From a virus (lineage: Duplodnaviria > Heunggongvirae > Uroviricota > Caudoviricetes), in the IMG/VR virus record IMGVR_UViG_2923318301_000003: 53,582 bases of DNA. One strand, given 5' to 3'. Positions 2,166 through 52,124 of the stretch are shown here, piece by piece. Made by a program: the position numbers and the translations under genes. The notes beneath the pieces are model-generated. The model was not told where the DNA came from. It worked only from the letters and a program-made list of their open reading frames with translations, and searched no databases. The first letter of the stretch is position 1, and every line of letters starts with the position of its first letter.

Positions 2166-3011
2166 ATGACTGCACCAGTAATTAGTTTTATCAATATGAA
2201 AGGTGGGGTTGGTAAAACAACTTTATGCGTTGGGATTGCTGAGTTTTTAGCCAACCATATGGGGCGCAAGGTTCTAGTTATCGATATTGATCCTCAATTT
2301 AATGCCACTCAGTCCTTAATGGGGCATTATGATCGAGTAGAAGAATATATGACTGCCCTTCGCCCTAATAATCAAACCATTCGAAAGATTTTTGAGCTTC
2401 CAAATTCATTAATGGAAGATGAAAAGAAAGTGACACCAGAACAGGTCATTACTAAAGTTTCAGACAATCTTGATATTATCTTAGGTGATATAAACATTAT
2501 CTTTGATACTAACCAAGAGGGTATTAGAATAAAAATGTTGCGTAAATTCATCACCGAAAATGACTTAAAAGAAAGTTACGACTATATCTTTATCGATAGC
2601 CCCCCAACAATCTCATTATTTACAGATACCGCACTCCTTGCTTCTGATTATTATCTTACTCCGGTTAAAATTGATCACTACTCGGTGCTTGGAGCAAGCA
2701 GTTTAAATAGCGTTATAAGAAATATGCGCACACATCATGAGAAAGAAATCAAGCAAGTCGGTTACATTTATACAAACACTGATGCTGAAATGACCAATAA
2801 AACAAGGGAAATTAAAGAACAATTCGAAAACCATACTCAATTTACAAATTTTTATTTCTTTGAAAATCAATTAACCTACGTGCGTGATTTAATGGTAGGT
2901 TATCAAGGAAATATTCCTTCTTGTTATTCAAAGTCACGCCAAGATATAGAAAAGATCTGTAACGAATTTATTAACAGAGTGGCTCACTTGGAAGGTAACA
3001 CAAATGAATAA
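2166..3011 (+). CDS. ParA/MinD-family deviant Walker-A ATPase, first gene of a three-gene operon
   Basis: N-terminal MKGGVGKTT (KGGxGKT deviant Walker A); 281 aa; AT-rich; 8-nt overlap with the next gene. Confidence 0.8.
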   Translation: MTAPVISFINMKGGVGKTTLCVGIAEFLANHMGRKVLVIDIDPQFNATQSLMGHYDRVEEYMTALRPNNQTIRKIFELPNSLMEDEKKVTPEQVITKVSDNLDIILGDINIIFDTNQEGIRIKMLRKFITENDLKESYDYIFIDSPPTISLFTDTALLASDYYLTPVKIDHYSVLGASSLNSVIRNMRTHHEKEIKQVGYIYTNTDAEMTNKTREIKEQFENHTQFTNFYFFENQLTYVRDLMVGYQGNIPSCYSKSRQDIEKICNEFINRVAHLEGNTNE

Positions 3012-3402
3012 ACAATTAATTAAAGCGCTCAATAAAGCTAATAATATGCCCATGACCAAAGAAAACTTCTTAGGCTTGGTAATTATGTTGATTCTTTCAA
3101 AAGAGGTTTTTAGATCAAATTTTGATGTTAGTAAATTTATTAACAAAACCTTCAAAATATCTTTTTTGAATTATGCTGTACGGTCAAGAACTTTGATGTG
3201 CGCTAAAATTTGCAGACATATTAATGAATTAAGTGAGAATGACATAAAGATGGCTTATACGCATTTCTTAAACAACATTAACACATTAGACATTATTTTT
3301 AATGATGCAAATAAAACAAGCCAAAAATCCACATCTAAAAGCAAGCATGCTATAAGGAATTTAAATATTTGGATTAATGCAAATAAAAAGGAAGAAGAAT
3401 AA
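3004..3402 (+). CDS. Hypothetical protein, operon partner of the ParA-like ATPase
   Basis: 132-aa ORF overlapping the upstream stop; its stop overlaps the next start (ATGA at 3402). No recognisable motif. Confidence 0.6.
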   Translation: MNKQLIKALNKANNMPMTKENFLGLVIMLILSKEVFRSNFDVSKFINKTFKISFLNYAVRSRTLMCAKICRHINELSENDIKMAYTHFLNNINTLDIIFNDANKTSQKSTSKSKHAIRNLNIWINANKKEEE

Positions 3403-4067
3403 TGCTCACGCAGGATCCCTTCAACATTGGAAGAGATGTAAATTATTTTAGAGCGGAGGTGCAAAAGCACCTCAGAACCACTGATGAAATAAACAAATCA
3501 GTATCAATATTTAGGCAAATAAGTCTTTGTAATACAATTTTAAGTCACAATCCTAATCTAAATCACTCTTCTTATATAAAAGGTTTTATATATGATACCT
3601 TAAACTCCTTAATTGCCATTATAAAAAAAAGAGAACGGTATCTCCAACTGAACTTCCGCTCAATGGTGGAGCATGTGGCCAGAATAAGCCTCAATAAGAA
3701 CTACAATGGTGGGGATTTTGACCAAACTGTACGTCGTAGAGACTTTGACTTCTTAAAAGCCCAACAAGTCGATGAAGGCTGGTCTTATTTACATAATGTC
3801 TATATCAACGCCTGTTATTATGTTCACTCCTCCCCCCAAGCGAACCTAAATGTTACATCAACATTTATATCACTTATGGAGGGAGATTGTAATTCAACAC
3901 AGCATAAAATGGTGAAAAAACTTCATGAGGTAGTATCGGCGCTGATGAGAATCATTATAAAGTATTATCATCAGCATATCTCAAACATTTTCTTTAGAAA
4001 CAAAAAGGATTTAGAGAAAATAATGGGAAAAAGCCTTTATTCATATTATACCAGCTTAGACAATTAA
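3402..4067 (+). CDS. Hypothetical protein, third gene of the ParA-like operon
   Basis: 221-aa ORF translationally coupled to the upstream gene; contains R-x4/5-H spacings (RAEVQKH, RSMVEH), which are not diagnostic. Confidence 0.6.
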   Translation: MLTQDPFNIGRDVNYFRAEVQKHLRTTDEINKSVSIFRQISLCNTILSHNPNLNHSSYIKGFIYDTLNSLIAIIKKRERYLQLNFRSMVEHVARISLNKNYNGGDFDQTVRRRDFDFLKAQQVDEGWSYLHNVYINACYYVHSSPQANLNVTSTFISLMEGDCNSTQHKMVKKLHEVVSALMRIIIKYYHQHISNIFFRNKKDLEKIMGKSLYSYYTSLDN

Positions 4068-4862: not shown

Positions 4863-6434
4863 TTACTGAGAGCTCAGATCAACTTTCCAGGGCAACAGAT
4901 CGCGTACCCGGTTTGCCGGCCAGTCCTGGATATGTTCAATGACGTAACGCAGCCACTTTTCTGGCTCCACATTGTTCAGACGGCATGTGCCGATCAGCGA
5001 GTACAACACCGCCGCATGTTCACCACCGCTGTCGGAACCCGCGAACATCCAGTTTTTCCGGCCTACGGCCACTCCCCGTAAGGCGTTCTCTGCGATGTTG
5101 TTGTCGATTTCCACCCAGCCATTACTGCAGTACACGTTCAGTGCATCCCACTGTTTCAGCAGGTATGCGAACGCTTTTGCCGTATCTGAGTGACGCGACA
5201 GTGTTTTCATCTGTTGCTGTATCCAGTCATACAGTGACTGCATCAGTGGCGCGGCTCTGGCTTTTCTTGCCGCCAGACGCTGTTCTGCTGAACAGCCCCG
5301 GACCTCTGCCTCGATGGCATACAGTTCACCGATACGCTGCAGGGCTTCCGTGGTGATGTAGGTGGGCGCTCTTGCATGCACATCGTGGATTTTTCTCCGG
5401 GCATGAGCCATACACGCGGCTTCCGTTATTCTGCCGGATTCGTATAACGCCCGGTAACCACCGTAAGCATCGGCCTGAAGCACACCGCTGTAACCGGCCA
5501 GGTAATTTTGTGGATGGATACCTTTCCGGTCCGGACTGTACGCGAACCAGACCGCCGGGGGCATCTGTGAACCGGCGTTACGGTCATCACGGACGTAGAC
5601 CCACAGCCGGGCTGTCCGGGTTTTACCGCTGCCCGGCTCCTGGACCGGGACGGGGATATCATCAGCATGGACTTTACCGGGCATCAGCACATACTGGCGC
5701 AGGACGTCATACAGCGGCTCCAGCAGTTCAGCAACAGCACCTGTCCAGCGCCCCAGTGTGGCACGGCTCAGCTCCACTCCCTGACGACGGTATATTTCTG
5801 ACTGGCGGTATAACGGCAGATGGTCTGCATATTTCCCGGTGACAACATGGGCCAGAAGCCCCGCTCCGGCATAACTGCGTGCAATGGGTTTTGAAGGTAC
5901 TGGTGCCTGCACGATATGGTCGCACCGGCAACAGGCCTGTTTCGGACGTTGTGTTTCGATAACCTTAAAGGCGCTGCTGATAAGCTCCAGTTGCTCTGAC
6001 ACATCACATCCCAGAGAACTGAGTTCACCACCACAGGCAGGACAGCATTCCTCTTCCGGCCGGATAACCCGGGTTTCACGGGGAAGTGAGGCCGGTAACG
6101 GTTTACGGGCTGAAGACTGGCGCAGGGCGGATGGCAGTACCGGGTCATATTGCTCACCCAGCGTTTCCGCCATTTCTTCCTGAAGTGCGCTGATTCGCTC
6201 CTGTGCTTCCTGTATCTGCCGTTCGGTTTTTGCACGAAGTTTTTCTGAGCTTTTACCGAACTGCATACGTTGCAGTTTCGCAACCAGCGCCTTCAGCCGG
6301 TTGATTTCGGAAGCATAAGCCGCCACCCGCTGTGAGAGCAGGCGGTTGTATTCAGCCATCTGGCGGATGGTGTCCTGTTGCGTCTGCAACAGTGCCCGCA
6401 GGCGGGCGTTCTCATGAGCAAGTGAGGTGTCCAT
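4863..6434 (-). CDS. IS66-family transposase TnpC
   Basis: 523-aa ORF with N-terminal coiled-coil/leucine-zipper, a Cys-rich zinc-finger-like segment (CPACGG...CCRCD) and a DDE-type core; typical IS66 TnpC layout. Confidence 0.85.
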
Positions 6435-6453
6435 ATCCTCACTTTACAACGGG

Positions 6454-6801
6454 TTATATGCGGATTCCAGCGCGTTCCGTTCGTTTCGGGTGCTTCCAGT
6501 TGATACCTTCAAGAAGCATGGATAACTGAGCCGGAGTAAGGTGCACCTTGCCGTCACGGGTGACTGGCCAGACGAAGCGGCCCCGCTCCAGGCGTTTGGT
6601 GAAGAGGCACAGTCCGTCACTGTCAGCCCACAACACTTTTATCTGGTCACCCCGGCGTCCGCGGAAGATGAACAGGTGTCCGGAGAACGGGTCATCCTTC
6701 AGGACGTTCTGAACTTTTGATGCCAGGCCGTTAAAGCCATTTCGCATATCGGTGATACCTGCAACCAGCCAGATACGCGAACCTGCAGGGAGAGATATCA
6801 T
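6454..6801 (-). CDS. IS66-family TnpB (Orf2) accessory protein
   Basis: 115-aa ORF between orfA and tnpC with the conserved IS66 Orf2 character (WLVAGITDMRNGFNGLA...). Confidence 0.8.
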   Translation of the reverse strand: MISLPAGSRIWLVAGITDMRNGFNGLASKVQNVLKDDPFSGHLFIFRGRRGDQIKVLWADSDGLCLFTKRLERGRFVWPVTRDGKVHLTPAQLSMLLEGINWKHPKRTERAGIRI

Positions 6802-7478
6802 CAGTGGCTGCTCCCTTTTATTTCGCGGATAAGTGTCTGTAATAACGCCGGCGTCAGTTTACCTTTAAGCCTGAGAGTTCCGGCCGGCAGAACCAGCTCA
6901 CAACACAGACTGTCGGACGGTGTATTTATCTGCTCTGGTTCCTGTGCGGGGGCCGGGATTTTATTATCCGGCTCCGGCGTTAACGTCACGGGAAGCAGTG
7001 CCGGCATATTTTTTCCGGAAGGCAGCAGGCCACCTTTCCGGTATTGATGGCGCCAGTTGAAGAGCAGGTTATCGTTGATTCCGTTTTCCCGGGCGATCTG
7101 CGCCACACAGGCTCCGGGCTGCAGTGACTGCTCCACTAAGGCGATTTTAAACTCATAAGGGAAGTTGGGCCGCCGGGGACGTTTTTTTACCACGGGGGCT
7201 TCGGATATAACGGTGCTTTCAGGACGTACGACTGGTACCGTGGAAAATTGTCCGTAAAGGCAGGCATCAAGTTCCTGCTCCGACATGCCTGCGGGCAAAG
7301 GCCACGAAAGGCCAGCTCTCCGAAAGCGCACGAACATACTACAAACTGTTGATTTTGGTACACCCAGGCGACGCCCGGCCACAACCCGGGGTAAATGTTC
7401 TTCAAAGTGAAGACGTAAAGCTTCAGTGATCCAGGTCCGGTGTTTCATACGATAGTGTCCATTAAAAATGATGGACAT
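6801..7478 (-). CDS. IS66-family OrfA (Orf1)
   Basis: 225-aa ORF whose stop overlaps the tnpB start. HTH-like N-terminus. True start may be the internal Met (MKHRTW). Confidence 0.7.
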   Translation of the reverse strand: MSIIFNGHYRMKHRTWITEALRLHFEEHLPRVVAGRRLGVPKSTVCSMFVRFRRAGLSWPLPAGMSEQELDACLYGQFSTVPVVRPESTVISEAPVVKKRPRRPNFPYEFKIALVEQSLQPGACVAQIARENGINDNLLFNWRHQYRKGGLLPSGKNMPALLPVTLTPEPDNKIPAPAQEPEQINTPSDSLCCELVLPAGTLRLKGKLTPALLQTLIREIKGSSH

Positions 7479-7644: not shown

Positions 7645-9594
7645 ATGATTGTTCTAAATCAGATTAACTCCTCACTTTTGTACAATGTCGCTTACAGGTA
7701 TACCATGAAATCCGAGACGCTAACTGTCCAACAACTTTTTCAAGACCGCCGACAATACTGTGTTCCATTCTATCAACGTGCCTATGTATGGACTCAGCGA
7801 AACCAATGGTCAGCTCTACTGGAGGATATCCTAGAGAAAGCACAATCCCGGCTCTCGGGTACAAAACCAACTCCCCATTTCCTTGGTGCAGTGGTACTGG
7901 AACCTCAACCAAAAAAAGGATTATTCGGTGTAGATTCCATACATATTATTGATGGTCAGCAACGATTGACCACTCTTCAATATGTTCTGGCATCCATCCG
8001 ATTAGCATTACGTGCGACAGATCTTTCCAACTTAGAGCCTCTCATTTCGTCTTGCCTGAAAAACTCAAACGAAGACACAATGCGAAATAAAGAAGTAGAG
8101 CGCTTCAAACTGTGGCCAACTTTTCGGGATCAAACTCATTTTATTCAAAGTTTTAATGTTGAAAATATTGACGATATCCGGAATGTATTCTCTGATAGTT
8201 TCACGCAGCATGGTACGTTGCGTAAGCATTTTAATCACCCGCCATCACTAGAAGCATTATGTTTTTTTACTGAAGCCTTTATAAAGTGGATTAAAATAGA
8301 AAATCACTCACCACGAGAAAATGCTGTAGCATTAATTGAGGCTGTCTTGACGGATCTGAAACTAGTAAGCATATTTCTCGAGGCTGAAGATGACGCTCAA
8401 ATAATTTTTGAAACATTAAATGGCAGAGGTGCGGAACTTCATGCCACAGATCTTATTCGCAATTATATTTTTATGTGCGCTGAACATGAAAATATTAATG
8501 CTGTTGAATTATATGAGAATGAGTGGAAGATCTTTGAAGATACGTACTGGTCAGAAAGACAACGTCGTGGTCGTATTAATAAACCACGCATGGAGTGGCT
8601 AGTGCATGCAACATTGCAATCAGAAAGGCAACGTGAAATCGATCTGTCTCGTCTTTACAATGAGTATCGTGATTATGTAAGTAAGGACTTGCCTTCACAA
8701 CGAGCAGATCTGCAAGTAAAGCGCCTCAAACAATATGCATCACAATATAAAGAATTGGTTGGTGGTTTTGGCACAACCCCCATCTCACACTTTGGACATC
8801 GCATCGCAGCCTATGATGTGACGACACTTTATCCGCTTGCTTTGTTCATTTCGATAGCTAACATCGCCGATGATGAGAAAGCAGCCATGTATAATGATCT
8901 TGTCTCCTACGTAGTACGAAGAGCCGTATGTGGCCTGACGCCAAAGAATTACAACAATGTATTTATGAATGTATTGCGGCACTTGTCTAAAACAGAAATT
9001 TCCAGTGTTGAGTTACGTAATATCCTCAATAGCTTAAATGGCGAAGCCTCACGTTGGCCTGGGGACTCAGAATTTCTCAACGCTTGCATCAATGCTCCAC
9101 TTTATCCTGGCAGGCTCGACGCACCGAAAATGCGCTCAATGTTAACGGAACTTGAAAGAGAACTTTGTCGCCAAGTGAAGACAGAGAAGCCTGATGTTCC
9201 AAATCTTTCTAACCTCGATATCGATCATCTTATGCCTCAAAGTTGGTATTCCTGTTGGCCTCTCGAAAATGGTCATATGGTGACAAATTCAGATGCTACG
9301 GTATTGAACCAAATTGTTCTGTCTGGAACCGATCTTACCCCAGAACAGCTACTGGTAAGGAAACGGCAACAAGCGATAGCTACGTTGGGAAATCTAACTT
9401 TGCTTAACCTTAGCGTAAACCGTTCTGTTCAGAATGCTGTATTTCTGAAAAAACGTGATGCTCTCATCGTCCACACCAATCTACGACTGAACATTCCACT
9501 TATAGTTAAGGATAAATGGGATGAGGATGAAATCCTGGAGCGGGGTAAAAAGTTGGGGGAAATTGCATTGAAAGTATGGCCAAAACACGATTAA
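7645..9594 (+). CDS. Fused DUF262/DUF1524 protein, GmrSD-family type IV (modification-dependent) restriction endonuclease-like
   Basis: N-terminal ParB-like/DUF262 hallmark (IIDGQQRLTTLQ) and C-terminal His-Me finger/DUF1524-like motif (DIDHLMPQSW); 649 aa. Alternative start at 7705. Confidence 0.75.
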   Translation: MIVLNQINSSLLYNVAYRYTMKSETLTVQQLFQDRRQYCVPFYQRAYVWTQRNQWSALLEDILEKAQSRLSGTKPTPHFLGAVVLEPQPKKGLFGVDSIHIIDGQQRLTTLQYVLASIRLALRATDLSNLEPLISSCLKNSNEDTMRNKEVERFKLWPTFRDQTHFIQSFNVENIDDIRNVFSDSFTQHGTLRKHFNHPPSLEALCFFTEAFIKWIKIENHSPRENAVALIEAVLTDLKLVSIFLEAEDDAQIIFETLNGRGAELHATDLIRNYIFMCAEHENINAVELYENEWKIFEDTYWSERQRRGRINKPRMEWLVHATLQSERQREIDLSRLYNEYRDYVSKDLPSQRADLQVKRLKQYASQYKELVGGFGTTPISHFGHRIAAYDVTTLYPLALFISIANIADDEKAAMYNDLVSYVVRRAVCGLTPKNYNNVFMNVLRHLSKTEISSVELRNILNSLNGEASRWPGDSEFLNACINAPLYPGRLDAPKMRSMLTELERELCRQVKTEKPDVPNLSNLDIDHLMPQSWYSCWPLENGHMVTNSDATVLNQIVLSGTDLTPEQLLVRKRQQAIATLGNLTLLNLSVNRSVQNAVFLKKRDALIVHTNLRLNIPLIVKDKWDEDEILERGKKLGEIALKVWPKHD

Positions 9595-9989: not shown

Positions 9990-10192
9990 CGCAAGTATCG
10001 ATCGATGGAGGCTTGGATGTTAAATTTCATGACTTTGATCACTTGGTGCATCACGAAACTATCGAAGTGCAACTCGCTCATGCCAACGGCGGATCTGTGC
10101 GTGGGATTTACAACCATGCTCAGTATCTAGATAAGCGCAGAGAAATGATGCAGTGGTGGGCTGATTACATCGATGGTCGTGCAGGAGTGTAA
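9990..10192 (+). pseudogene. Remnant of the 3' end of a P4-type integrase gene
   Basis: Translation ...ETIEVQLAHANGGSVRGIYNHAQYLDKRREMMQWWADYIDGRAGV aligns with the C-terminus of the integrase at 1..1209 (...ETQLAHVDKNAIRGTYNHALYLEGRREMMQWYADYI...). No N-terminal or catalytic domains upstream. Confidence 0.55.
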
Positions 10193-10196
10193 GCCA

Positions 10197-11228
10197 TTAC
10201 GCGAATTCTTCCACGATCGCCATGCCAGTAGCACCATCACCACCGGTAAATGCCGTACCGGTAAACCCAAGGTCATACGCGCCACCACCACCGGATCCGG
10301 GAGCTGCGCCAGCAATACCGGCCTGAGAACCCGCCCGGCCACCGCCGCCAAAATACGACGCCCCGCCGTTGCCCGTCAGAAGGCTTGAGCCTGTCTGTCC
10401 ATCTGAGCCGGTACCACCGTTGATCCTGATATCTCCGGTCGCCGCCGTACCTCCGGCGCCGCCGGCGGTATTGGACACGCCTGACTTCACGCCGCCTTTC
10501 CCGCCAGGAGCTGAGAACAGGCTGGCAAACGAGGTAGCACCACCATCCGCACCACTTACTGCGCCAACTCCGCCCTTACCACCCTTGCCGACAGTAATCG
10601 CGTAAGAACTGGCAGCAGACAGGTCAACCCATACGATAATGGTCGCACCCGCACCGCCGCCGGCACCGGAGAAGGTTTCTGTATTGTTGGAGGCCTGGCA
10701 GCCGCCACCGCCACCACCGGCGCCGGTCAACGTTACTTTTGCATAACGGGCCAGAGGAGATCGCGTATAGGTTCCGTTTGCATAGAAAGCTTTTGGAGCG
10801 CCAAGAGAACGCCCGACAAAACCAGAGGAATCAGATATTCCGAGGTTATAACGGGCTTCATTTACCGCATCTTCACCGGCATCTTTAATTTCTGACAGGT
10901 TATTACTGATCTGCAGGAAAGATAATAATGACCCGGCGGTCATTAAATTCGCGACAATGTCATTCGTTGACCATACGCGCGCCGTAGTTCCTTCCTGACC
11001 ACGAATTACTGTCATCACGTCACCAGATACAGATGTGACGTGCATAATTTCAGAAATTGTTTTCGTGGCCGCGTCGGTTATCGTTAATTTGAAATAACTC
11101 TGTCCCGAAACTGGCGATGGGAATAAAGACCCCGCTCCAGTACCCACGGTAATAACGGTAGCGGACGCGCTAATACCCGCAGCGAGCACACTCTTTGCGT
11201 TATTATTGGCTAATAGTTTCAACGCCAT
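10197..11228 (-). CDS. Glycine-rich tail-fibre-associated protein (distal fibre or receptor-binding partner)
   Basis: 343-aa ORF directly downstream of the side tail fibre gene; long GGxGG-rich repeats typical of phage fibre proteins. Occupies the tfa position but is larger than lambda Tfa. Confidence 0.6.
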   Translation of the reverse strand: MALKLLANNNAKSVLAAGISASATVITVGTGAGSLFPSPVSGQSYFKLTITDAATKTISEIMHVTSVSGDVMTVIRGQEGTTARVWSTNDIVANLMTAGSLLSFLQISNNLSEIKDAGEDAVNEARYNLGISDSSGFVGRSLGAPKAFYANGTYTRSPLARYAKVTLTGAGGGGGGCQASNNTETFSGAGGGAGATIIVWVDLSAASSYAITVGKGGKGGVGAVSGADGGATSFASLFSAPGGKGGVKSGVSNTAGGAGGTAATGDIRINGGTGSDGQTGSSLLTGNGGASYFGGGGRAGSQAGIAGAAPGSGGGGAYDLGFTGTAFTGGDGATGMAIVEEFA

Positions 11229-11286
11229 ATATACCCCCGCAAATCAAAAGGCCGTATTATTTAGGCCTTTTGATTTCTATTTTCCA

Positions 11287-14200
11287 TTAATTGTAGCCAT
11301 ATGACAGCCAAAGGTCGGCAAGCGTTGACGCCACAAAGCACGGGTCATACATCGTGCTGCCAGCCGCACTGCTGCCGTCAAAATCAAAGAAGCGCTTTGG
11401 TAGTCCCGGTTTCGGCCCGTACTGCGTCTCAAAAATTCCGAACAGCGATTTTGCGGCAATCATTGCTGACGGCCTGGCGGACTGAAACAGCGGCAGTAAC
11501 GCAAACGCGATAGTGTTCGCGCCACCACGTCGGCTTTCAGAGATGCAGTAATCCACCTCACTGAATCCTCCCGCGCTGTTTGACGCTGTCAGGATAAAAT
11601 TCACCAGGTCAAACTTTGGTGTCCGGTTAAGCAGCTTGCAGGCCAGCAGGTAGTTATTAGTGGCGTAAACCATGTACGGCAGGTACATGCTCTTCAGCGT
11701 GGAATCCGACGGGCCATCGAGAATAATGTTTTCCGCTTTCATGAATGTCGCTGAGTTCGTGATGAAGGTCTCCAGCGCATTGAATGCAGCAAGGTACGTC
11801 CCGCCGGTATCCAGCCCCATATAAATCGCCAGCGCCAGCACGCGCATGGCTGTCGCGTTAGAGTTGCTGTTTCCTGAGTTTGTGGCTGTCCCCACCAGAG
11901 CCACGCCACCATAGGTGTTATATGACACCATGACGGCATCCGCGAGGGATTTAATCCCCGCCTTCAGCTCGGTTTGTTTGGCTGTATCTCCGGCCTTCAC
12001 CGCCATTTTGTAGAGCCACTCATAGCACGGAATACTCAGACGCGACTGGAACTGCAACCCCCACCATCCATCAGTGAACATAATACCTGGATTAGTTATG
12101 CCGCCAAATCCCCTCATGTACGATTTAAAATTCGTATACACTGTGTTCAGCGTGCTGATGCCATACTTTTCTAACAGAAAAATCTCTGCCATGTGGCAAT
12201 AGAACTGCGTTTTCACATCGGGTCCGCCACCATAAACAGTAGCGTCAGTGCTTTTCCACCACTCAACGGATCCCCTGACGTGACAGGCGATTTTCTCCAG
12301 CATGTCCAGCCGCAGAACACCTGCATAACTGCAATCACCCATGAACCCTACCGGGCGGTTGTTAGCCTGACTTACCAGCAGTGCATTAACCTCTGAGGTG
12401 GAACTGGTGATGGTGTTGTCGCAGTCAATCCATGTCTCATGTGTCCACGTCCAGTTTTTTGGCACAGGCCAGTTCAGGAATGAATCGTCATTCAGGTCAA
12501 CGAAAAGCCATCCCGCGTCCAGCCGAGTTGTTGTGCCTGTGGGTTGCAGCGCCGTTGCCCGTATCGGGCGCGTTGGCCCATAAGCAGGGCCATCTCGGTG
12601 GATATCCCCATTAGCAAAGACCGTCGTGGCCGTAAATCGCTTGCCGGTGACTGAATCCGTCCAGTACGTCAGTGCTCTAGCGGCATCAAAGGTATATGCA
12701 CCATCATTCAGGTTCAGACGGGAATATGCACCAAATAATACTCCAGCCGGAATATCTTGCGTAGCCGTGGTCATGACCCGGATAAGCACCTTGCCATTTT
12801 TGAAAATCCGGTAGCGTACTGTGGACTGTAACGCCCCTTCAGCCAGTGTTCCGATGGTCCGGTTTCTGACGGTCAGCTCCAGCTCAGTAAAGACCGGCCC
12901 GGTATTAACCATGCGCAGTGATGCACCGAGCACCATCTTGTTACTTGAGGATCCGCCGGAGACAATCCCGGTACAGTAACAGGAATGCGCAAAACTGTGC
13001 GTCTGTCCTGCCGGGTCGGTGATACTGGTCAGCCCCAGGCTGTTCTGGCGCTGGAAAAAATACACATACCCGCCCACGGTAACGGTGAACCCGTCAGCCA
13101 CCCTCACGAGCTGCGGGAAGGACTCTGAGGCCAGGTCCTGGCGGCGACGATTGTATGCCCTGAGTTCGTAATATTTCTGCTGTCCTGATGCCAGGGTATC
13201 GGTGATGAACACAGACCCTGATGCCAGGGAGCCGTCGGCATGGTATCCGGTGTTCGATTTCAGGCGTGGATTGGGATAAACGTTATCCGCAAACTGGCAG
13301 TCAAACACGTTGCCGTCAGCGTCCATCACCTTCAGCGCATCGGAGTCCGGCACCTCGCCGGGACCAAACGACACCTTAAGCTCAACGGGATAGTTTTTAT
13401 ATTCTGCCGACAGCAGATTTTTGACGTCTGCACTTTTGCGCAGATAGTGGCCGACCAGAACCGGACGTGCCACCTTGCGCCGCCAGATGGCATACGTACC
13501 CGCTGGCAATACGGCCAGTCCTGAAGGCGCAAACCCATCACGGCTAACTGTATAGTCACCAGCAGGTAACTGAATCCTGAAAAAATCCTCAAACCCTGTC
13601 TGGGCGATCGTCGTATCATATGCCGCATATGCCGCAAAGAGGCAATCTGGCGCTATTGAGTTGATGTAATCAACAACGGTCGACGCCGTATAACCAGCAG
13701 CCGTAAGTTCAGCGATGGTAACCACGAACTGAATGGCGTTGGCAATTGCTGTCCCGGATATTGACTTCCTTGTGACGGAGTTAACTGAGCCTGCCTGCGC
13801 CGGATAAAACTTGCCTGTAATATCAAGTGCAATATAGTTTGAGCCTGCTACCGGAACACCAAACCCAGCCGGCAGGTCATAGCGAACCCGAACTACACTA
13901 CTGGTCGTTTCCAGAATGGAAACATACTTCAAATCCTGAAATCGGAACAGGCGATACGCTGACCAGAATTTACCATCAGAATACTGGGTGTTCGTCCCAG
14001 GAAAAACCAGTGACGCAACCTCAGAACCCAGCGAAGAAAAAACAAGGCGATAGAAGTTTGTGTTTACATCCGTAGTGGTTGCCAGAGACAAAAATTCTAA
14101 TACTGAATTTTCCGGTAATGGTAGTGCTGTATCATCAAGAGATTTGAATTCAATCAAATCCTGATAATCACCATTTTTTCTTCTAGTTGCTTCTCTTGAT

Positions 14201-15027
14201 ATAGACGAAGATAGGCTGTACTGGGAAATAATTGTTCTCCCGGTTGCAGTCATAACCCCGGATGTATTTACATACTCGTCAGCCAGCGAGGTATTTATAG
14301 CACTGGTTACCCAGCATTTTGAACCAGAAAGAATATTGCCAGCGTCTGCATCAGCCTGTGCCGCCTCCAGCGTGGGAAATTCGCGGATTGTCCCTGTTAT
14401 AGCAGCTGTGCCTGGCTGAGAAGCCTGTAGTATAGCCACGCCATCCTGGTTCTCGTAGGTTTTGAATGCCGCTGTTGCTCCCGGGCCTTCCGCTACACGG
14501 AAAGACTGCCCGCTGGTAGTAGCAGCAAGGCCTGCAATTGTACCGTCCGGATCGCTCGGCGTTTTATAGAACGTGAACTTATTCAGCGCATATTCAGAAG
14601 CATTGCTCGCGAACTCTTCGGCCTGAGAGGCAGAAATAGCAGCCTCTGCCGTGTTCTGTGCCACCGCGGACGCGTTACGCGCCACTTCTTCCACCATCAG
14701 CTCAAAACGGCGCAGTGCCTCCGGACGGGCATCATCCTCCGTCATGGCACCGAGAAAATCATTCAGCGTACCCGGTTGTGAGTCTTCATACACGGTGATG
14801 GTCCCGGCATGCGATGGCGGGAAGCCTTCCACCAACAGAATAACGCTGTACTGACCGTACTCAACGTCCATGCTGTAACGCCCGGCTTCATCCGGATTTT
14901 CTGAGGCCACCGTGTTCACCACCACCGTGGTGCTGTTACGTTTTGCTTTCAGCTGGATTGTGCAGTTCTGTACCGGTTTACCTGCGCCGTCTTTCAGTAC
15001 ACCTGAAATCTTTACTGCCATATTCAC
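11287..15027 (-). CDS. stf: Side tail fibre protein, chimeric (lambda Stf-like N-terminus, divergent distal region)
   Basis: N-terminal ~150 aa (MAVKISGVLKDGAGKPVQNCTIQLKA...) match lambda Stf from memory; the remaining ~1100 aa are not lambda-like; 1246 aa. Confidence 0.8.
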   Translation of the reverse strand: MNMAVKISGVLKDGAGKPVQNCTIQLKAKRNSTTVVVNTVASENPDEAGRYSMDVEYGQYSVILLVEGFPPSHAGTITVYEDSQPGTLNDFLGAMTEDDARPEALRRFELMVEEVARNASAVAQNTAEAAISASQAEEFASNASEYALNKFTFYKTPSDPDGTIAGLAATTSGQSFRVAEGPGATAAFKTYENQDGVAILQASQPGTAAITGTIREFPTLEAAQADADAGNILSGSKCWVTSAINTSLADEYVNTSGVMTATGRTIISQYSLSSSISREATRRKNGDYQDLIEFKSLDDTALPLPENSVLEFLSLATTTDVNTNFYRLVFSSLGSEVASLVFPGTNTQYSDGKFWSAYRLFRFQDLKYVSILETTSSVVRVRYDLPAGFGVPVAGSNYIALDITGKFYPAQAGSVNSVTRKSISGTAIANAIQFVVTIAELTAAGYTASTVVDYINSIAPDCLFAAYAAYDTTIAQTGFEDFFRIQLPAGDYTVSRDGFAPSGLAVLPAGTYAIWRRKVARPVLVGHYLRKSADVKNLLSAEYKNYPVELKVSFGPGEVPDSDALKVMDADGNVFDCQFADNVYPNPRLKSNTGYHADGSLASGSVFITDTLASGQQKYYELRAYNRRRQDLASESFPQLVRVADGFTVTVGGYVYFFQRQNSLGLTSITDPAGQTHSFAHSCYCTGIVSGGSSSNKMVLGASLRMVNTGPVFTELELTVRNRTIGTLAEGALQSTVRYRIFKNGKVLIRVMTTATQDIPAGVLFGAYSRLNLNDGAYTFDAARALTYWTDSVTGKRFTATTVFANGDIHRDGPAYGPTRPIRATALQPTGTTTRLDAGWLFVDLNDDSFLNWPVPKNWTWTHETWIDCDNTITSSTSEVNALLVSQANNRPVGFMGDCSYAGVLRLDMLEKIACHVRGSVEWWKSTDATVYGGGPDVKTQFYCHMAEIFLLEKYGISTLNTVYTNFKSYMRGFGGITNPGIMFTDGWWGLQFQSRLSIPCYEWLYKMAVKAGDTAKQTELKAGIKSLADAVMVSYNTYGGVALVGTATNSGNSNSNATAMRVLALAIYMGLDTGGTYLAAFNALETFITNSATFMKAENIILDGPSDSTLKSMYLPYMVYATNNYLLACKLLNRTPKFDLVNFILTASNSAGGFSEVDYCISESRRGGANTIAFALLPLFQSARPSAMIAAKSLFGIFETQYGPKPGLPKRFFDFDGSSAAGSTMYDPCFVASTLADLWLSYGYN

Positions 15028-15085: not shown

Positions 15086-15685
15086 TCAGAATTTATAACC
15101 GACACCCACGATGAAACCGTCAGTGCGCCAGTCACCACTGCCGGAGCCTTCATAAGTAATATCAATGGCCACGGATTCGGTCGGGTTAAACTGCACGCCA
15201 GCCCCCCACGCCAGAGACGTGTTGCTGTGGCGACCGTCATCACTTCCGGTCAGCACATCGTGCGTTTTCCCCTTGCTGTCAGTTACGCGGAGATAATCCC
15301 CGGAAAAAGTCGAAACACGGCTGTAAGCCACACCTGCCATCGCATAAGCACTGAACCATTCATTCACGCGTACAGACGGCCCCACCATCACGCTGAACCA
15401 GCGGTTACGCACGGAATCTTCATGCCAGCGGGTATCGCTGTAACGGGTAAGCTGGCGATTCTTGTCTCCTGCATAGCTGAATGACGTCACCAGCCCCAGT
15501 GTGTCCGTAAACTCATAACGGTATTTCACGTTAATCCCGTTCAGATTATCGCTGCCGGGAGCGTTCGTACGGGCATGAAGATACCCCGCGCTCAGTGTGG
15601 ACTGATGTTCAGACGCCCATGCAGGCGCACCGGATACGGCCAGACAGATGGCTGCGGACAAAATGGCTGCACAAACTTTACGCAT
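15086..15685 (-). CDS. lom: Lom/Ail-family outer membrane protein
   Basis: 199-aa ORF with signal peptide and beta-barrel character ending ...GVGYKF; sits between J and stf as in lambda. Confidence 0.85.
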
Positions 15686-15751: not shown

Positions 15752-19153
<3,402 letters not shown>

Positions 19154-39008: not shown

Positions 39009-39935
39009 ATGAAAGTTAGAAGCATAGGATTTACAATAAATAACAATAACAAAAATATTAATACCGTTGACGTAATGAATGCTTTTATCAACGCATCAAA
39101 CAGAGAACACAGTCGCACAGACTATACTCGTAAAATTCTCATTTCGGATGTGAATGATTTCTATTATGGATTAGTTGTCACATTCAGAAACCAAAAAAAG
39201 AACTGTAAGTCGCAATTTGTTGATGGTAAATTCCAGCTTAAAATTGAAGATCTTCAAGGAAGTGACAAACTTGCTAATTTCAACTTTTTCTTAATTAAAA
39301 AATCTAATCTTTCTGGTCTCTATATGTATCACCACGGGTCATGCAGTCTGAACACTCTCTTTTCTCATTTAGAAACAATAAGTAATGAATTTATCAGAAA
39401 TCAAAATAAAGAAGAAATAAAAAAACTTGGTGATAAACCAAAACAAAAAGAAGTAACTGCAATAAATAAAAAATACAAAGAAAGACTGACTTTCAGCCTT
39501 ATGACAAATAAAAACAACATTCAGAGTGTTTTATGTCAATTCAAAGAGATTAAAAGCACAAGCTTTAAATTTAATTATATAGATTTTAAAGGTGGACCAA
39601 TGACTGCGCTTGAACAATTTGTTAACACTACCACAATAGATATGAATTTTAATTCTAGCGACAGAACAAAAGTGCAACAACTATCTCAGAATCTTTCAAA
39701 TATTTATAATTCTATGAGTGGAGTTGCTAAAGCACAGGTTATTGCAGTAAACCATGCAGGAATAGAAAAAACCATTGATTTTATGAACTGCCCTGTTTTT
39801 TTTGAAACATACGATTTCGATATAATTGCCGATAAAGTCAATGGATTGACAAACGATAATTATACAACAAACCCTGTTTTTGATATGATAAAAGAAGAAA
39901 TGCTGAACGGGACGAATAAAAATGCCTTTATATGA
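39009..39935 (+). CDS. Hypothetical soluble protein, first gene of the AT-rich two-gene moron operon
   Basis: 308-aa ORF, strongly AT-rich, opposite strand to the flanking phage genes; 14-nt overlap with the next gene; no recognisable catalytic motif. Confidence 0.75.
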   Translation: MKVRSIGFTINNNNKNINTVDVMNAFINASNREHSRTDYTRKILISDVNDFYYGLVVTFRNQKKNCKSQFVDGKFQLKIEDLQGSDKLANFNFFLIKKSNLSGLYMYHHGSCSLNTLFSHLETISNEFIRNQNKEEIKKLGDKPKQKEVTAINKKYKERLTFSLMTNKNNIQSVLCQFKEIKSTSFKFNYIDFKGGPMTALEQFVNTTTIDMNFNSSDRTKVQQLSQNLSNIYNSMSGVAKAQVIAVNHAGIEKTIDFMNCPVFFETYDFDIIADKVNGLTNDNYTTNPVFDMIKEEMLNGTNKNAFI

Positions 39936-40470
39936 ATGGCTAATAAATAAAAGATTGAGGTATCAGTACCTTACACTGCTTGCATCCTCGATCCTGGCAT
40001 TGCTTGCACTTTACCTATTGTACAGAAACACACCTAAAGTAAGTGTTAACTTTTTTGATTTTTATCATAAAAACTTACGAGGCTATCTCTTCTCCGGTTT
40101 TATTTCCGTGGGCTCATTTTTATTGAGCCTGCATACCTTTGTCATAATAAATTTACGCGATAAGGTTTTTGCAACTCAGGAATATAAGGAAATTTATAGC
40201 ATTGCCACTGGTATACCTATTGACAAAATCAATGATAGTGTACTTTATAAACCTTTAGACAATTTATCCTCATTTATTAATACATCAATATTATGTTCTA
40301 TCACAACAGCAATTGCACAATTCACTATTGGACTTTCAACTAATTTATATGCATGCTTATTTTGCGTATGGCTTGCAATACTAACGGTATTTCTTTTATT
40401 ACATTGCCTCATCATAATCAGACAAAATATTAAAATTTTATTAAAGCAACAGAGAAAAAAAGGGGGGTAA
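39922..40470 (+). CDS. Small integral membrane protein (four predicted TM helices), second gene of the moron operon
   Basis: 182-aa ORF with four hydrophobic stretches of ~19-25 aa (LTLLASSILALLALYLLY; LFSGFISVGSFLLSLHTFVIINL; SILCSITTAIAQFTIGL; LYACLFCVWLAILTVFLLLHCLIII) and a basic C-terminus. Confidence 0.75.
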   Translation: MPLYEWLINKRLRYQYLTLLASSILALLALYLLYRNTPKVSVNFFDFYHKNLRGYLFSGFISVGSFLLSLHTFVIINLRDKVFATQEYKEIYSIATGIPIDKINDSVLYKPLDNLSSFINTSILCSITTAIAQFTIGLSTNLYACLFCVWLAILTVFLLLHCLIIIRQNIKILLKQQRKKGG

Positions 40471-50734: not shown

Positions 50735-51084
50735 TGGAGCCATACAGCCTCACACTCGATGAGGCCTGTCATTTTCTCAAGATATCCAGACCGACTGCCA
50801 TTAACTGGATACGCACAGGGCGTCTTCAGGCAACACGCAAAGATCCCACTAAGAATAAATCTCCTTACCTCACAACACGACAAGCCTGCATTGCGGCTCT
50901 TCAGTCTCCGCTGCATACTGTCCAGGTGAGCGCGGGTGATGGCATAACAGAGGAAAGAAAATGTCACTCTTCCGCAGAGGTGAAATATGGTACGCCAGTT
51001 TCACATTGCCGAACGGTAAAAGATTTAAACAGTCTCTTGGAACAAAGGACAAAAGGCAGGCGACAGAACTCCATGACAAGCTAA
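50734..51084 (+). CDS. Excisionase-like HTH protein (3' boundary uncertain; overlaps the integrase start)
   Basis: The N-terminus [30 protein letters not shown] is a typical excisionase/AlpA-type HTH; the open frame runs ~120 nt into the integrase gene. Confidence 0.55.
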
Positions 51085-52124
51085 AGGCTGAAGCATGGCG
51101 GGTCAGCAAACTTGGTGAAATACCTGATATAACGTTCGAGGAAGCGTGTGTCAGGTGGCTTGAAGAGAAAGCACATAAAAAATCACTGGACGATGACAAA
51201 AGCCGGATCGGATTCTGGCTTCAACATTTCGCAGGAATGCAACTAAGAGACATTACTGAATCAAAAATTTATTCAGCAATGCAGAAAATGACGAACCGGC
51301 GTCATGAGGAAAACTGGAAACTCAGGGCAGAAGCATGCAGAAAAAAAGGGAAACCTGTTCCAGAATACACGCCAAAACCAGCGTCCGTTGCAACGAAGGC
51401 TACGCATCTTTCATTTATAAAGGCCCTACTAAGAGCCGCAGAGCGTGAATGGAAAATGCTGGATAAGGCACCAATTATTAAAGTGCCCCAACCAAAGAAT
51501 AAACGGATCCGCTGGCTGGAGCCCCATGAAGCACAAAGGCTGATTGATGAATGTCCGGAGCCATTAAAGTCTGTTGTTGAATTTGCACTGGCAACAGGCC
51601 TAAGACGCTCGAACATCATCAACCTTGAATGGCAACAAATAGATATGCAGCGCCGGGTGGCATGGATAAACCCGGAAGAGAGTAAATCAAACCGCGCAAT
51701 TGGCGTTGCGCTGAATGATACTGCATGTCGCGTATTGAAAAAACAAATCGGGAATCATCACCGTTGGGTATTTGTGTACAAGGAAAGCTGTACCAAACCA
51801 GACGGAACGAAAGCGCCAACAGTCAGGAAGATGCGGTATGACGCAAACACAGCCTGGAAAGCAGCGCTGAGACGGGCTGGTATTGATGATTTCAGATTTC
51901 ACGACTTGAGACACACCTGGGCAAGTTGGCTGGTTCAAGCCGGAGTCCCGTTGTCAGTGTTACAGGAAATGGGAGGCTGGGAGTCTATCGAAATGGTTCG
52001 TCGATATGCTCACCTTGCACCTAATCACCTTACCGAACACGCACGGCAAATAGACTCGATCCTGAACCCATCGGTCCCAAATTTGTCCCAGTCAAAAAAT
52101 AAGGAAGGTACTAATGATGTGTAA
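50961..52124 (+). CDS. Prophage tyrosine integrase
   Basis: 387-aa ORF; C-terminal [39 protein letters not shown] catalytic region; ends 13 nt from the att core and tRNA. Confidence 0.9.

Follow-up and report, generated by a model that had tools for sequence, protein, structure and literature searches.

The window, that is, the whole stretch of 53,582 nucleotides of viral DNA that was analysed, carries on its minus strand the genes for the tail tip protein J (15752..19150), the outer-membrane protein Ail/Lom (lom, 15086..15685; PF06316, E=8e-120) and a chimeric side tail fibre (11287..15021). The gene lom lies between J and stf, as in lambda, and the fibre gene occupies the side-fibre position of lambda Stf. 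A second, short tail fibre gene (10197..11228, minus strand, 343 aa) follows after a gap of 58 nt. The two open reading frames reported in the preliminary description, 11287–15027 and 10197–11228, both on the minus strand, were present with exactly matching coordinates. The longer one opens mechanically at a GTG (15027), giving 1246 codons; the ATG at 15021 was taken as the real start because lambda Stf begins MAVKISG, and the protein thus comprises 1244 aa plus the stop codon. Downstream of the short fibre gene lies a 135-nt remnant of the 3' end of an IntS-type integrase gene (intS, 10058..10192, plus strand). Between the two fibre genes a hairpin was found by eye (11238..11270, minus strand), with the structure CAAAAGGCC-10 nt loop-GGCCTTTTG, followed by ATTT; it is possibly a weak terminator. 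Promoter and terminator scans around the two fibre genes gave no excess over shuffled controls, and the same scans predicted terminators after lom and J.

The N-terminal segment of the long fibre is a lambda-type Stf anchor (aa 1–127; 14641..15021, minus strand). In BLASTP comparisons, 116 of its 127 residues (91%) were identical to those of lambda orf-401, the N-terminal part of Stf; beyond aa 127 nothing significant was obtained against orf-401, and no similarity was detected to orf-314, the C-terminal part of Stf. At the DNA level the similarity to lambda ends at position 14645. PF08400 was the only Pfam match in the entire 1244 aa (aa 1–134, E=1.2e-71), and chain Ta of PDB 9e7m matches aa 1–94. 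According to the published domain limits of Stf (collar domain 1–91, flexible linker 92–101; PMC12617516), the anchor segment takes in the collar domain and the linker and runs on for ~25 residues into the proximal coiled coil. The module exchange has its junction where the Stf coiled coil begins. The earlier proposals that only the N-terminus, put at about 150 aa, is Stf-like and that receptor-binding modules have been exchanged on this anchor agree with these precise mosaic junctions, and the alternative of a standard Stf throughout finds no counterpart past aa 127.

Residues 128–300 (14122..14640, minus strand) consist of a non-lambda continuation of the coiled coil, rich in Ala, Ser and Glu, and two linker modules (FTFYKT..DPDGTIAGLA.. 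and EFPTLEAAQADADAGNI..TGR). This region matched PHROGs 19652, 38670, 31000 and 14987. The linker modules recur in many enzymatic receptor-binding proteins (RBPs) encoded by prophages of Klebsiella and E. coli, with tblastn matches in the loci L003, L008, L014, L015, L004, L009 and L007; in native RBPs the same linker stands directly behind their own anchor.

The distal part is composed of beta-rich domains (aa 301–870; 12412..14121, minus strand), including a galactose-mutarotase-like or GH38 C-terminal-like supersandwich, and, as putative catalytic domain, a predicted (alpha/alpha)6 barrel (aa 871–1244; 11290..12411, minus strand). The distal 946 aa were thus predicted to form a beta-supersandwich followed by an (alpha/alpha)6 barrel, which is the domain order of GH15/GH65-type enzymes, and in the model they look like a sugar-active enzyme. 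Across homologues of 34–88% identity, about 90 positions are invariant, among them D/E/R/H/Y/W motifs clustered in the supersandwich as well as the barrel; the invariant motifs include CQFAD, NPRxKSN, GYHADGSL and GDxHRDG in the beta-rich region and GNSNSNAT, DxxGxYL and ISESRRG in the barrel. Six loops are disordered in the model, one of them holding the invariant ISESRRG motif.

No Pfam match was obtained for the distal region in 15 homologues, even at E<=5, and in 17 more distant representatives found with HMMER the only Pfam matches were phage anchor domains. NCBIfam yielded no match, nor did phmmer and profile searches against the PDB sequences. A fold search in BFVD returned only weak, domain-level matches, with TM scores <=0.23. 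The predicted fold agrees with that of the CAZy (alpha/alpha)6-barrel families (GH15, GH65, GH88, GH105, GH76, GH8 and PL-type toroids), but membership in them is not supported by Pfam, NCBIfam or PDB profile searches. The overall build in the model, with a virion anchor, a linker and a large globular head of carbohydrate-enzyme fold, is that of a depolymerase, and as catalytic domain it has neither the canonical right-handed beta-helix nor a beta-propeller. The structure prediction suggested in the preliminary description hence returned a depolymerase-type fold in kind, although a supersandwich with an (alpha/alpha)6 barrel and not the beta-helix.

The head family is rare: among 1.84 billion representatives it accounts for ~45 full-length clusters at 50% identity. 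Wherever the genetic context was seen, it was exclusively that of phage or prophage tail genes, and at least five types of anchor carry the head (lambda-type, P2-type, E217-type, phiJL001-type and BppU-type). Several of these loci, including L002, L007 and L009, have no downstream partner gene, and one locus adjoins an invertase. Between the fibre and its homologue from a P2-like element of Raoultella, dN/dS was 0.10–0.14, and many invariant D, E, R, Y, W and H residues are kept across homologues down to 34% identity; on these sequence grounds the fibre gene is functional and under purifying selection. The long fibre was recorded in 25 complete E. coli genomes. The reading frame is intact in the window, in KMi006 and in YJ3, and uninterrupted in L001 and L002. 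The RefSeq label of pseudogene is ruled out by the intact frame in the first three and the dN/dS of ~0.1. In the Klebsiella phages SAKp02 and SAKp11, a homologue with 38% identity forms the terminal tail fibre. SAKp02 is reported to make halo plaques, which have been credited to the tail fibre protein ORF36 (PMC11280391); the SAKp02 record labels ORF36 as a hypothetical protein, and it may or may not be the same protein as the 38%-identical homologue. The halos of SAKp02 are accordingly a circumstantial link of the head family to depolymerase activity.

Over aa 1–964 the tail tip protein J shares 97.1% of its residues with lambda J, but only 43.8% over aa 991–1132, the receptor-binding end, which corresponds to about nt 15755–16180. 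Judging from this alignment, J carries a receptor-binding allele other than that of lambda; Stx1a-converting phages, 2H10 and PhiR70_1 have an identical one. The earlier statement that a LamB-binding type of J is retained was dropped as unsupported, with the receptor-binding end at only 44% identity to lambda. A host range unlike that of lambda is plausible for both receptor-binding proteins.

The 343-aa protein consists of an N-terminal anchor (aa 1 to ~110), a helical neck (~88–128) and a TNF-like, glycine-rich tip (141–343), in which glycine makes up 29% of the residues. PF21722 (Gly_rich_2) was its sole Pfam match (aa 153–340, E=8.5e-14, 52.5 bits against a cut-off of 24.3). AF2 gave a pLDDT >90 over aa 140–343, where the predicted structure displays a TNF-like sandwich with stacked glycine-rich loops. 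Foldseek searches with the tip recovered the Pam3 fibre (7ypx_A, E=1.8e-8, 26% identity), 7yfw, the Q chains of the Bxb1 tail tip (9d93) and the TG domain of ALK/LTK. Residues 7–110 are homologous to the N-terminus of a solved Ralstonia phage fibre (8jov_1, E=7e-7) and correspond to a separate virion-docking region; by tblastn, PDB 8JOV is a fibre of GP4/RPZH3-like Ralstonia phages, and a literature search did not retrieve a publication on it. Native enzymatic RBPs begin with an N-terminal module of the short-fibre type at 57% identity, and the N- and C-terminal modules of the 343-aa homologues recombine independently. The protein is a complete short tail fibre, with its own anchor and tip.

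The preliminary description had a glycine-rich protein replacing Tfa. This stands as regards the position of the gene and the lack of similarity to Tfa, but not as regards function, as the protein is a modular fibre by sequence and fold. Similarity to Tfa or Caudo_TAP and a size of ~190 aa were taken to define a Tfa. The 343-aa protein gave E=47 against lambda Tfa in BLASTP and no Tfa or Caudo_TAP Pfam match, and the alignment to phrog_863 ('tail fiber assembly') spans positions 309–604 of a fibre-length profile of 690 positions. A Tfa-type chaperone was rejected on the grounds of the missing Tfa similarity, the protein's own anchor, its TNF-like tip and the recombination of its modules.

In its native setting the 343-aa fibre is encoded by the last of the tail genes in myovirus-like prophages of the IntS type, and the gene was present in 53 other E. 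coli genomes without the long fibre. The intS remnant, identified through the RefSeq annotation of the identical KMi006 locus, matches the intS 3' ends of L021, L023 and L024 at 95% (blastn) and ends 4 nt from the stop codon of the 343-aa gene, a spacing equal to that in native IntS prophages. The limits of the cassette are exactly the 343-aa gene and the intS 3' end. A stretch of 33 nt has no match in either the fibre-only prophage L002 or the Gly-rich donor type L003, and the hairpin occupies exactly this stretch; it is for this reason regarded as marking the recombination joint, and the joint of ECSD228 is identical. The short fibre was imported from an IntS-type, myovirus-like prophage along with the 135-nt remnant. 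It is optional for the long fibre: prophages of the YJ3 type carry the same Stf chimera and lack the 343-aa gene. None of the native neighbours of this gene (baseplate proteins and genes of 252, 79 and 105 aa) is encoded in the window. In the native loci the 79- and 105-aa genes stand before the 343-aa gene; they were rejected as recognisable chaperones, as they belong to PHROGs of unknown function or bear a doubtful 'UmuD-like' label and have no Pfam match.

The 343-aa gene has a good ribosome-binding site and is located inside the late operon. It is intact in 15 of the 16 genomes having both fibre genes and is split by IS903B in strain 961. Two copies from lambdoid contexts differ by 19 synonymous and 2 non-synonymous codons. 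The gene occurs in up to three copies per genome, and gene conversion by native copies at other genomic sites could also account for the synonymous excess. We lean slightly towards a short fibre that is functional in this phage.

The locus belongs to a lambda-like E. coli prophage and is a case of ordinary host-range module shuffling. In its best reading, held at a probability of about 0.6, it encodes a Stf-anchored polysaccharide depolymerase and a second receptor-binding fibre, the place of the latter in the virion being uncertain. The tail, lambda-like, would bear two separate receptor-binding proteins. By analogy with Ur-lambda, the 1244-aa protein would be mounted as four trimeric side fibres, in 12 copies per virion, and would require no Tfa-type chaperone. 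From aa 128 onwards it would be the body of an enzymatic RBP of another phage lineage, with coiled coil, linkers, beta domains and head. The head would bind and cleave a surface polysaccharide, probably a capsule, a colanic acid-type exopolysaccharide or an O-antigen, so that the virion could reach the outer membrane, where the non-lambda J tip would engage its receptor. The short fibre reached the lambdoid genome through the joining of a lambdoid tail module to an attP-intS-fibre end, an arrangement kept in ECSD228, and of intS the window retains only the 135-nt remnant.

As the head has no sequence link to a CAZy or Pfam family or to a solved structure, it could bind without cleaving. The distal part would then be a non-catalytic adhesin, an enzyme fold used as a lectin for a surface glycan or protein, which we consider unlikely: the ~90 invariant positions and clustered motifs exceed what a simple binding surface usually needs, the two-domain arrangement matches that of GH15/GH65/GH94/GH95-type enzymes, and SAKp02, with a homologue as its terminal tail fibre, is reported to form halos. 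It is a serious, if less favoured, possibility that the 343-aa gene is a passenger that came with the attP-intS end, its product being unable to dock on a lambda-type tail and absent from the virion. The native partners are absent from the window, the cassette boundary coincides with the gene and the intS 3' end, YJ3-type prophages do without the gene, the IS903B insertion is tolerated in strain 961, and the native anchor module comes from a myovirus-type baseplate context. Against this, the gene is intact in nearly all genomes with the pair, the 19 synonymous versus 2 non-synonymous differences were recorded between two lambdoid-context copies that share an identical junction, and the gene has a good ribosome-binding site and a place in the late operon. 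Moreover, the linker modules of the chimera neighbour the short fibre in every native locus seen, which may provide a docking surface.

A role of the 343-aa protein as functional replacement of Tfa, either as a chaperone or as a tip adhesin of the long fibre, is highly improbable. It has the position of tfa directly downstream of stf, with only the 58-nt gap between them, and capping of fibre tips is a known role of glycine-rich adhesins, for example S16 gp38 (PMC9608196). However, besides the lack of Tfa similarity and of any Tfa-type Pfam match, its anchor is homologous to those of independent fibres and of native enzymatic RBPs, homologues of the big fibre occur without such a partner in L002, L007 and L009, the gene resides in the 53 E. 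coli genomes lacking the long fibre, and the big fibre ends in a globular, enzyme-like head and not in a gp37-type tip. A further, bolder extension of the preferred reading is that the head founds a new phage-restricted family degrading polysaccharides, in effect a new CAZy family directed to a capsule or exopolysaccharide of E. coli or Klebsiella, and, at the same time, that the N-terminal module of the short fibre docks on the shaft of the chimera (aa 128–300). Both together are quite improbable; if true, this would be a lambda-type siphovirus with a branched side fibre and two specificities.

Compared with lambda and Ur-lambda, the fibre shares the J-lom-stf position and the first 127 aa at 91% identity, and it differs in lacking the long coiled-coil shaft, the gp37-like distal tip and the OmpC-binding domain, as well as a cognate Tfa encoded downstream. 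The Stf of Ur-lambda measures 774 aa, against 1244 aa here. The shared segment covers the collar domain, which forms a 12-copy ring on the tail (PMC12617516). As an experimental precedent, lambda particles are retargeted when the N-terminus of their Stf carries a K1F, K5 or KL106 depolymerase fibre (PMC11338833). These engineered chimeras resemble the natural one in the heterologous, capsule-directed head and in a J variant swapped near aa 964; they differ in the fusion point, Stf aa 393 or 528 versus aa 127 in the window, and in the head, which is a beta-propeller/beta-helix sialidase, a K5 lyase or a Klebsiella prophage fibre in the former and a predicted supersandwich plus (alpha/alpha)6 barrel of no known family in the latter.

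At fold level the modelled fibre fits the rare 'alpha/alpha toroid' class of predicted phage depolymerases, which accounts for ~1% of INPHARED hits and 29 of ~3900 prophage domains (DepoScope, PMC11326577; Klebsiella lysogen survey, PMC12491483); in the publications consulted no biochemical characterisation of a member was found. Unlike this class, the window family adds a large N-terminal supersandwich and has no CAZy-type sequence signature. The predicted succession of supersandwich and (alpha/alpha)6 barrel is shared with GH15/GH65/GH94/GH95-type enzymes, and the barrels of GH88/GH105/GH76 and AGE-type epimerases are further structural relatives in the model; identity to all of these was only 7–13% in structural alignments, with no profile match. 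The C-terminal 200 aa of the short fibre resemble cyanophage Pam3 gp24, the glycine-rich proteins of the Bxb1 tail tip and the ALK/LTK TG domain. In Pam3 the TNF-like/glycine-rich domain has been proposed as a receptor-recognising tip (PMC9608196). Unlike Pam3, which has a long helix, the short fibre is anchored by a beta-rich, 8jov-like module, and no gp25-like chaperone gene adjoins it, there being no open reading frame between the 343-aa gene and the intS remnant.

Tail-fibre heads set which encapsulated strains can be reached by a phage or a phage-derived delivery particle, and engineered Stf-depolymerase chimeras of lambda already deliver payloads to K1, K5 and KL106 strains (PMC11338833). 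The natural chimera described here offers a defined junction at Stf aa 127 and a head of an uncharacterised family that has no link to Pfam, NCBIfam or PDB. Should the head prove to be an enzyme, the range of available capsule depolymerases would gain a new fold family, and CAZy a candidate for a new family. The orphan second fibre represents a small natural experiment on the portability of fibre anchors between tail types. Surveys of prophage RBPs that rely on annotated proteins would miss the long fibre, since RefSeq/PGAP marks only its first 445 nt. In KMi006 and YJ3 these 445 nt are labelled 'pseudogene' and 3.3 kb of intact reading frame are left blank, and in nearly all other listed E. 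coli genomes the same partial label is the sole feature on the matching DNA.

Both reading frames of the side-fibre region were found where the preliminary description had placed them, at 10197-11228 and 11287-15027, both on the minus strand. The second is a GTG-started mechanical ORF; its translation reads VN-MAVKISG... and lambda Stf begins MAVKISG, so that the ATG at 15021 was taken as the true start of a large fibre of 1244 aa. The first is glycine-rich and encodes a short fibre of 343 aa. Upstream of the large fibre are lom (15086-15685, minus strand; PF06316) and then J (15752-19150, minus strand), in the lambda gene order, and a lambdoid prophage, whose integrase lies at 50961-52124, makes up the remainder of the window. 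A locus 99.9% identical to that of the window is carried by Escherichia coli KMi006.

As had been proposed, only the N-terminus of the large fibre is Stf-like, over 127 aa instead of the ~150 aa first estimated (116 identities in 127 positions to aa 1-127 of lambda orf-401, the N-terminal part of Stf, by BLASTP). The remainder is unrelated to lambda Stf, since BLASTP retrieved nothing significant past aa 127 in orf-401 and no similarity to orf-314, the C-terminal part. Likeness to lambda at the DNA level stops at 14645, and the sole Pfam domain in the fibre is PF08400 (aa 1-134). The N-terminus matched PDB 9e7m. The cryo-EM structure of Ur-lambda Stf shows a collar domain (residues 1-91), of which 12 copies ring the tail, followed by a flexible linker (92-101) and a trimeric coiled coil from residue 102, giving four trimeric side fibres (PMC12617516). 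Compared with that protein, the large fibre retains the collar, the linker and ~25 coiled-coil residues; aa 127, where the junction lies, falls within the coiled coil, and an Ala/Ser/Glu-rich heptad-like stretch carries on after it.

Residues 128-300 consist of two linker modules (FTFYKT..DPDGTIAGLA.. and EFPTLEAAQADADAGNI..TGR), both found again in numerous enzymatic receptor-binding proteins (RBPs) encoded by prophages of Klebsiella and E. coli, ahead of SGNH/GDSL esterase, SASA esterase or TolB-like propeller heads. In the native RBPs of IntS-type prophages a different anchor module comes first and the same linker follows directly; the large fibre is thus the body of an RBP of this type, the original anchor having been swapped for that of lambda. 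Mosaic lambdoid side fibres are already known, and this chimera belongs with them; Stf-depolymerase fusions have been described both as natural (a KL106 prophage Stf) and as engineered proteins (PMC11338833). What is less ordinary is the head, which belongs to a family without sequence-level annotation and whose predicted CAZyme-like architecture is rare among phage depolymerases.

The 946-aa distal head is rare. Just 15 clusters (E. coli, Raoultella and Klebsiella) were retrieved by a word-indexed search among 5.8 billion proteins. When 1.84 billion representatives at 50% identity were searched exhaustively with an HMMER profile, 384 matched, ~45 of them full-length and the others covering just the N-terminal anchor of some queries or single domains. 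Near or distant members had no Pfam domain besides the phage anchors PF08400 and BppU_N; the head itself had no NCBIfam match and no PDB match by sequence or profile, and was assigned to phrog_20877 ("unknown function") in PHROGs. The AlphaFold2 model, from a 15-sequence alignment (mean pLDDT 80, pTM 0.68), contains beta domains in model residues 1-570 and an all-helical domain in 578-946. The modelled order, a supersandwich followed by an (alpha/alpha)6 barrel, is that found in enzymes of the GH15/GH65/GH94 type. Against predicted viral structures, the only long alignments, each of them weak, involved algal-virus GH65/GH95 proteins and a single Pseudoalteromonas phage fibre. An "alpha/alpha toroid" class is recognised among predicted phage depolymerases and is rare: it accounts for ~1% in INPHARED and, in Klebsiella prophages, for 29 of ~3900 domains (PMC11326577, PMC12491483).

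The large-fibre gene is under purifying selection, with dN/dS values against the Raoultella homologue of 0.14 (aa 301-870) and 0.10 (aa 871-1244). About 90 positions are invariant among homologues with identities as low as 34%, and clustered polar motifs are invariant in both domains (CQFAD, NPRxKSN, GYHADGSL, GDxHRDG, GNSNSNAT, DxxGxYL and ISESRRG). Divergence from the fibre of the YJ3 prophage (L002) is concentrated in aa 301-870 (12412-14121), with dS 0.067 vs 0.008 in the flanks, a sequence pattern which indicates a putative additional recombination patch inside the distal module.

Wherever context was seen, members of the head family were located among phage or prophage tail genes, and the head is a portable RBP module, occupying the tail-fibre position in each of six settings: a P2-like prophage in which a PF12571 fibre follows (L004); another lambda-type prophage, divergent from the first, that has a PF08400 anchor of its own and lacks a downstream partner (L007); an E217-like myovirus-type prophage (L008); a phiJL001-like siphovirus-type prophage (L009); a locus where it adjoins an invertase in inverted orientation (L005); and a protein with a BppU_N anchor (P0205). 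PF08400 was found again on other diverged representatives (P0149, P0151), so that the pairing of Stf anchor and (alpha/alpha)6 domain is old and recurrent. Homologues with 29-38% identity are carried by 12 sequenced phages, all labelled hypothetical or "tail fiber"; that of SAKp11 (Casjensviridae; 1355 aa) is the last tail gene ahead of the lysis cassette. Its close relative SAKp02 is reported to form halo plaques, which were credited to a depolymerase carried by tail fibre protein ORF36 (PMC11280391). This tie of the head family to depolymerase activity is circumstantial, as ORF36 may not be the homologue. In the invertase locus (L005, 5484-9342), P0005 (1113 aa, own short N-terminus, 68% identical to the distal module) lies next to a resolvase/invertase gene and points opposite to the J-GDSL fibre genes, which suggests an invertible-segment switch of the Mu G / P1 C type between alternative fibre heads.

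The RefSeq/PGAP annotation of the fibre gene covers the initial 445 nt alone, labelled an incomplete pseudogene (prophage tail fiber N-terminal domain-containing protein), and ~3.3 kb of the intact 1244-codon ORF carry no annotation in KMi006 (L001, 13091-16831) and YJ3 (L002, 5017-8757). The 445-nt partial call is the sole annotated feature on the fibre in strains ECSD228 and 961, and in the 25 genomes with full coverage just the partial label or no feature lies beneath the matching DNA. The Gly-rich gene begins at an internal ATG in some RefSeq/PGAP records, giving 272 aa instead of 343.

The retention of a LamB-binding J was not established. J is 97.1% identical to that of lambda until aa 964 and 43.8% over aa 991-1132, and its receptor-binding allele (aa 965-1132; 15755-16258) is identical to that of Stx1a-converting phages, 2H10 and PhiR70_1. 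Brodel et al. swapped gpJ specificity at a natural break point at ~964, there towards OmpC variants (PMC11338833). With a non-lambda distal Stf and a non-lambda J end, both receptor-binding proteins of the tail differ from those of lambda.

The 343-aa protein is unlike Tfa, the lambda Stf chaperone, as had been stated: no similarity was found, and its C-terminal 200 residues are 29% Gly. Its description as a Tfa replacement did not hold, and a chaperone role is very unlikely, since an anchor-like N-module and a Pam3-type tip make it a complete short fibre. Its residues 7-110 are similar to the N-terminal end of a tail fibre of solved structure (PDB 8jov_1, E=7e-7), which tblastn placed in a Ralstonia RPZH3/Gervaise-type phage, and the N-module is highly conserved (dN/dS 0.014 vs Klebsiella copies). 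The tip (aa 140-343) was modelled by AlphaFold2 with pLDDT above 90 and matched in Foldseek the Pam3 fibre gp24 (E=1.8e-8), Bxb1 tail-tip proteins and the ALK/LTK TNF-like/Gly-rich domain; in cyanophage Pam3 this domain was proposed as the receptor-recognising tip (PMC9608196). The two modules recombine independently: some homologues have the first ~150 aa in common and then Collar (PF07484) or gp53-like (PF21882) ends, and others bear the Gly-rich C-terminus behind P2-type fibre N-termini (PF12571/PF03406).

In Klebsiella and in a further 53 complete E. coli genomes, the Gly-rich gene is the last tail gene of myovirus-like or siphovirus-like prophages. The native order, from the chromosome side inward, is argW tRNA, intS (forward) and then, converging on the opposite strand, the Gly-rich fibre, a 105-aa gene, a 79-aa gene, a ~250-aa gene, an enzymatic RBP and baseplate genes, the fibre stop codon being 4 nt away from that of intS. 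ECSD228 and 961 harbour at argW a lambdoid prophage with full intS followed by Gly-rich gene, Stf chimera, lom and J; this hybrid combines a lambdoid tail module with the attP-intS-fibre end. The fibre stop and the Gly-rich start are connected by the same sequence in the window and in ECSD228/961, and this joint contains a 33-nt hairpin matching neither parent. The window retains just 135 nt of intS (10058-10192), the remainder having since been lost. Among 5426 complete E. coli genomes, at ≥80% query coverage, the distal part of the large fibre was present in 25, the Gly-rich gene in 69 and the two adjacent in 16. The small gene pair (79 aa, phrog_3893; 105 aa, phrog_3469, "UmuD-like") always precedes N-module short fibres, whatever the tip (L016 7433-7989; equivalents in L014, L015, L018, L021 and L022); it is absent from the window and occurs without an N-module fibre in L008. 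An unannotated record, OZ035751.1 "Lambdavirus PDP110P1" (L003), combines a lambda-type integrase with a myovirus-like tail end (Baseplate_J-like and wedge-like proteins, 431-aa Gly-rich fibre), and its genus label may be out of step with its tail module.

Whether the short fibre is used in this virion or is a passenger was weighed, and a functional second fibre was ranked slightly higher. The gene is intact in 15 of the 16 genomes having the adjacent pair, and it has a GGGGG ribosome-binding site within the late operon. Between the two lambdoid-context lineages sharing one junction, 22 nt differ, with 19 synonymous vs 2 non-synonymous codon changes; native copies, of which a genome may have up to three, could mimic such purifying selection through gene conversion. 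The passenger reading is also favoured by the missing native docking context, none of the native neighbours being encoded in the window, and by dispensability elsewhere, YJ3-type prophages carrying the same Stf chimera with only Tfa fragments downstream. A further point against use is that in strain 961 (L024, 3001-5098) IS903B splits the Gly-rich gene of the hybrid prophage at argW. The Stf chimera bears the linkers that accompany the short fibre in every native locus seen, a co-occurrence that would still permit docking on the shaft.

The analysis established the mosaic structure and where its junctions lie, that the ORFs are intact and under purifying selection, which folds are predicted, and how the family is distributed. 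In the mechanism proposed, 12 copies of the chimera would mount through the lambda collar as four trimeric side fibres, whose heads would bind and probably cleave surface polysaccharide, letting the virion reach the outer membrane, where the non-lambda J tip would engage its receptor. The short fibre, if incorporated, would add a second specificity through its Gly-rich tip.

Other features of the window were recorded. A two-gene insert (39009-40470, plus strand; 308 and 182 aa; GC 0.31) lies within the prophage on the strand opposite to its neighbours; neither gene had a Pfam match, and the pair are candidate moron or defence genes. Just beyond the prophage tail end is a gene for a GmrSD-type (DUF262/DUF1524) type IV restriction enzyme (7645-9594, plus strand), preceded by a low-GC ParA-like ATPase gene and two ORFs of unknown function (2166-4067), which may together form a defence islet beside the prophage. 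An IS66-family element (4863-7478; TnpC of 523 aa plus 115- and 225-aa ORFs) is missing from the otherwise 99.9% identical KMi006 locus.
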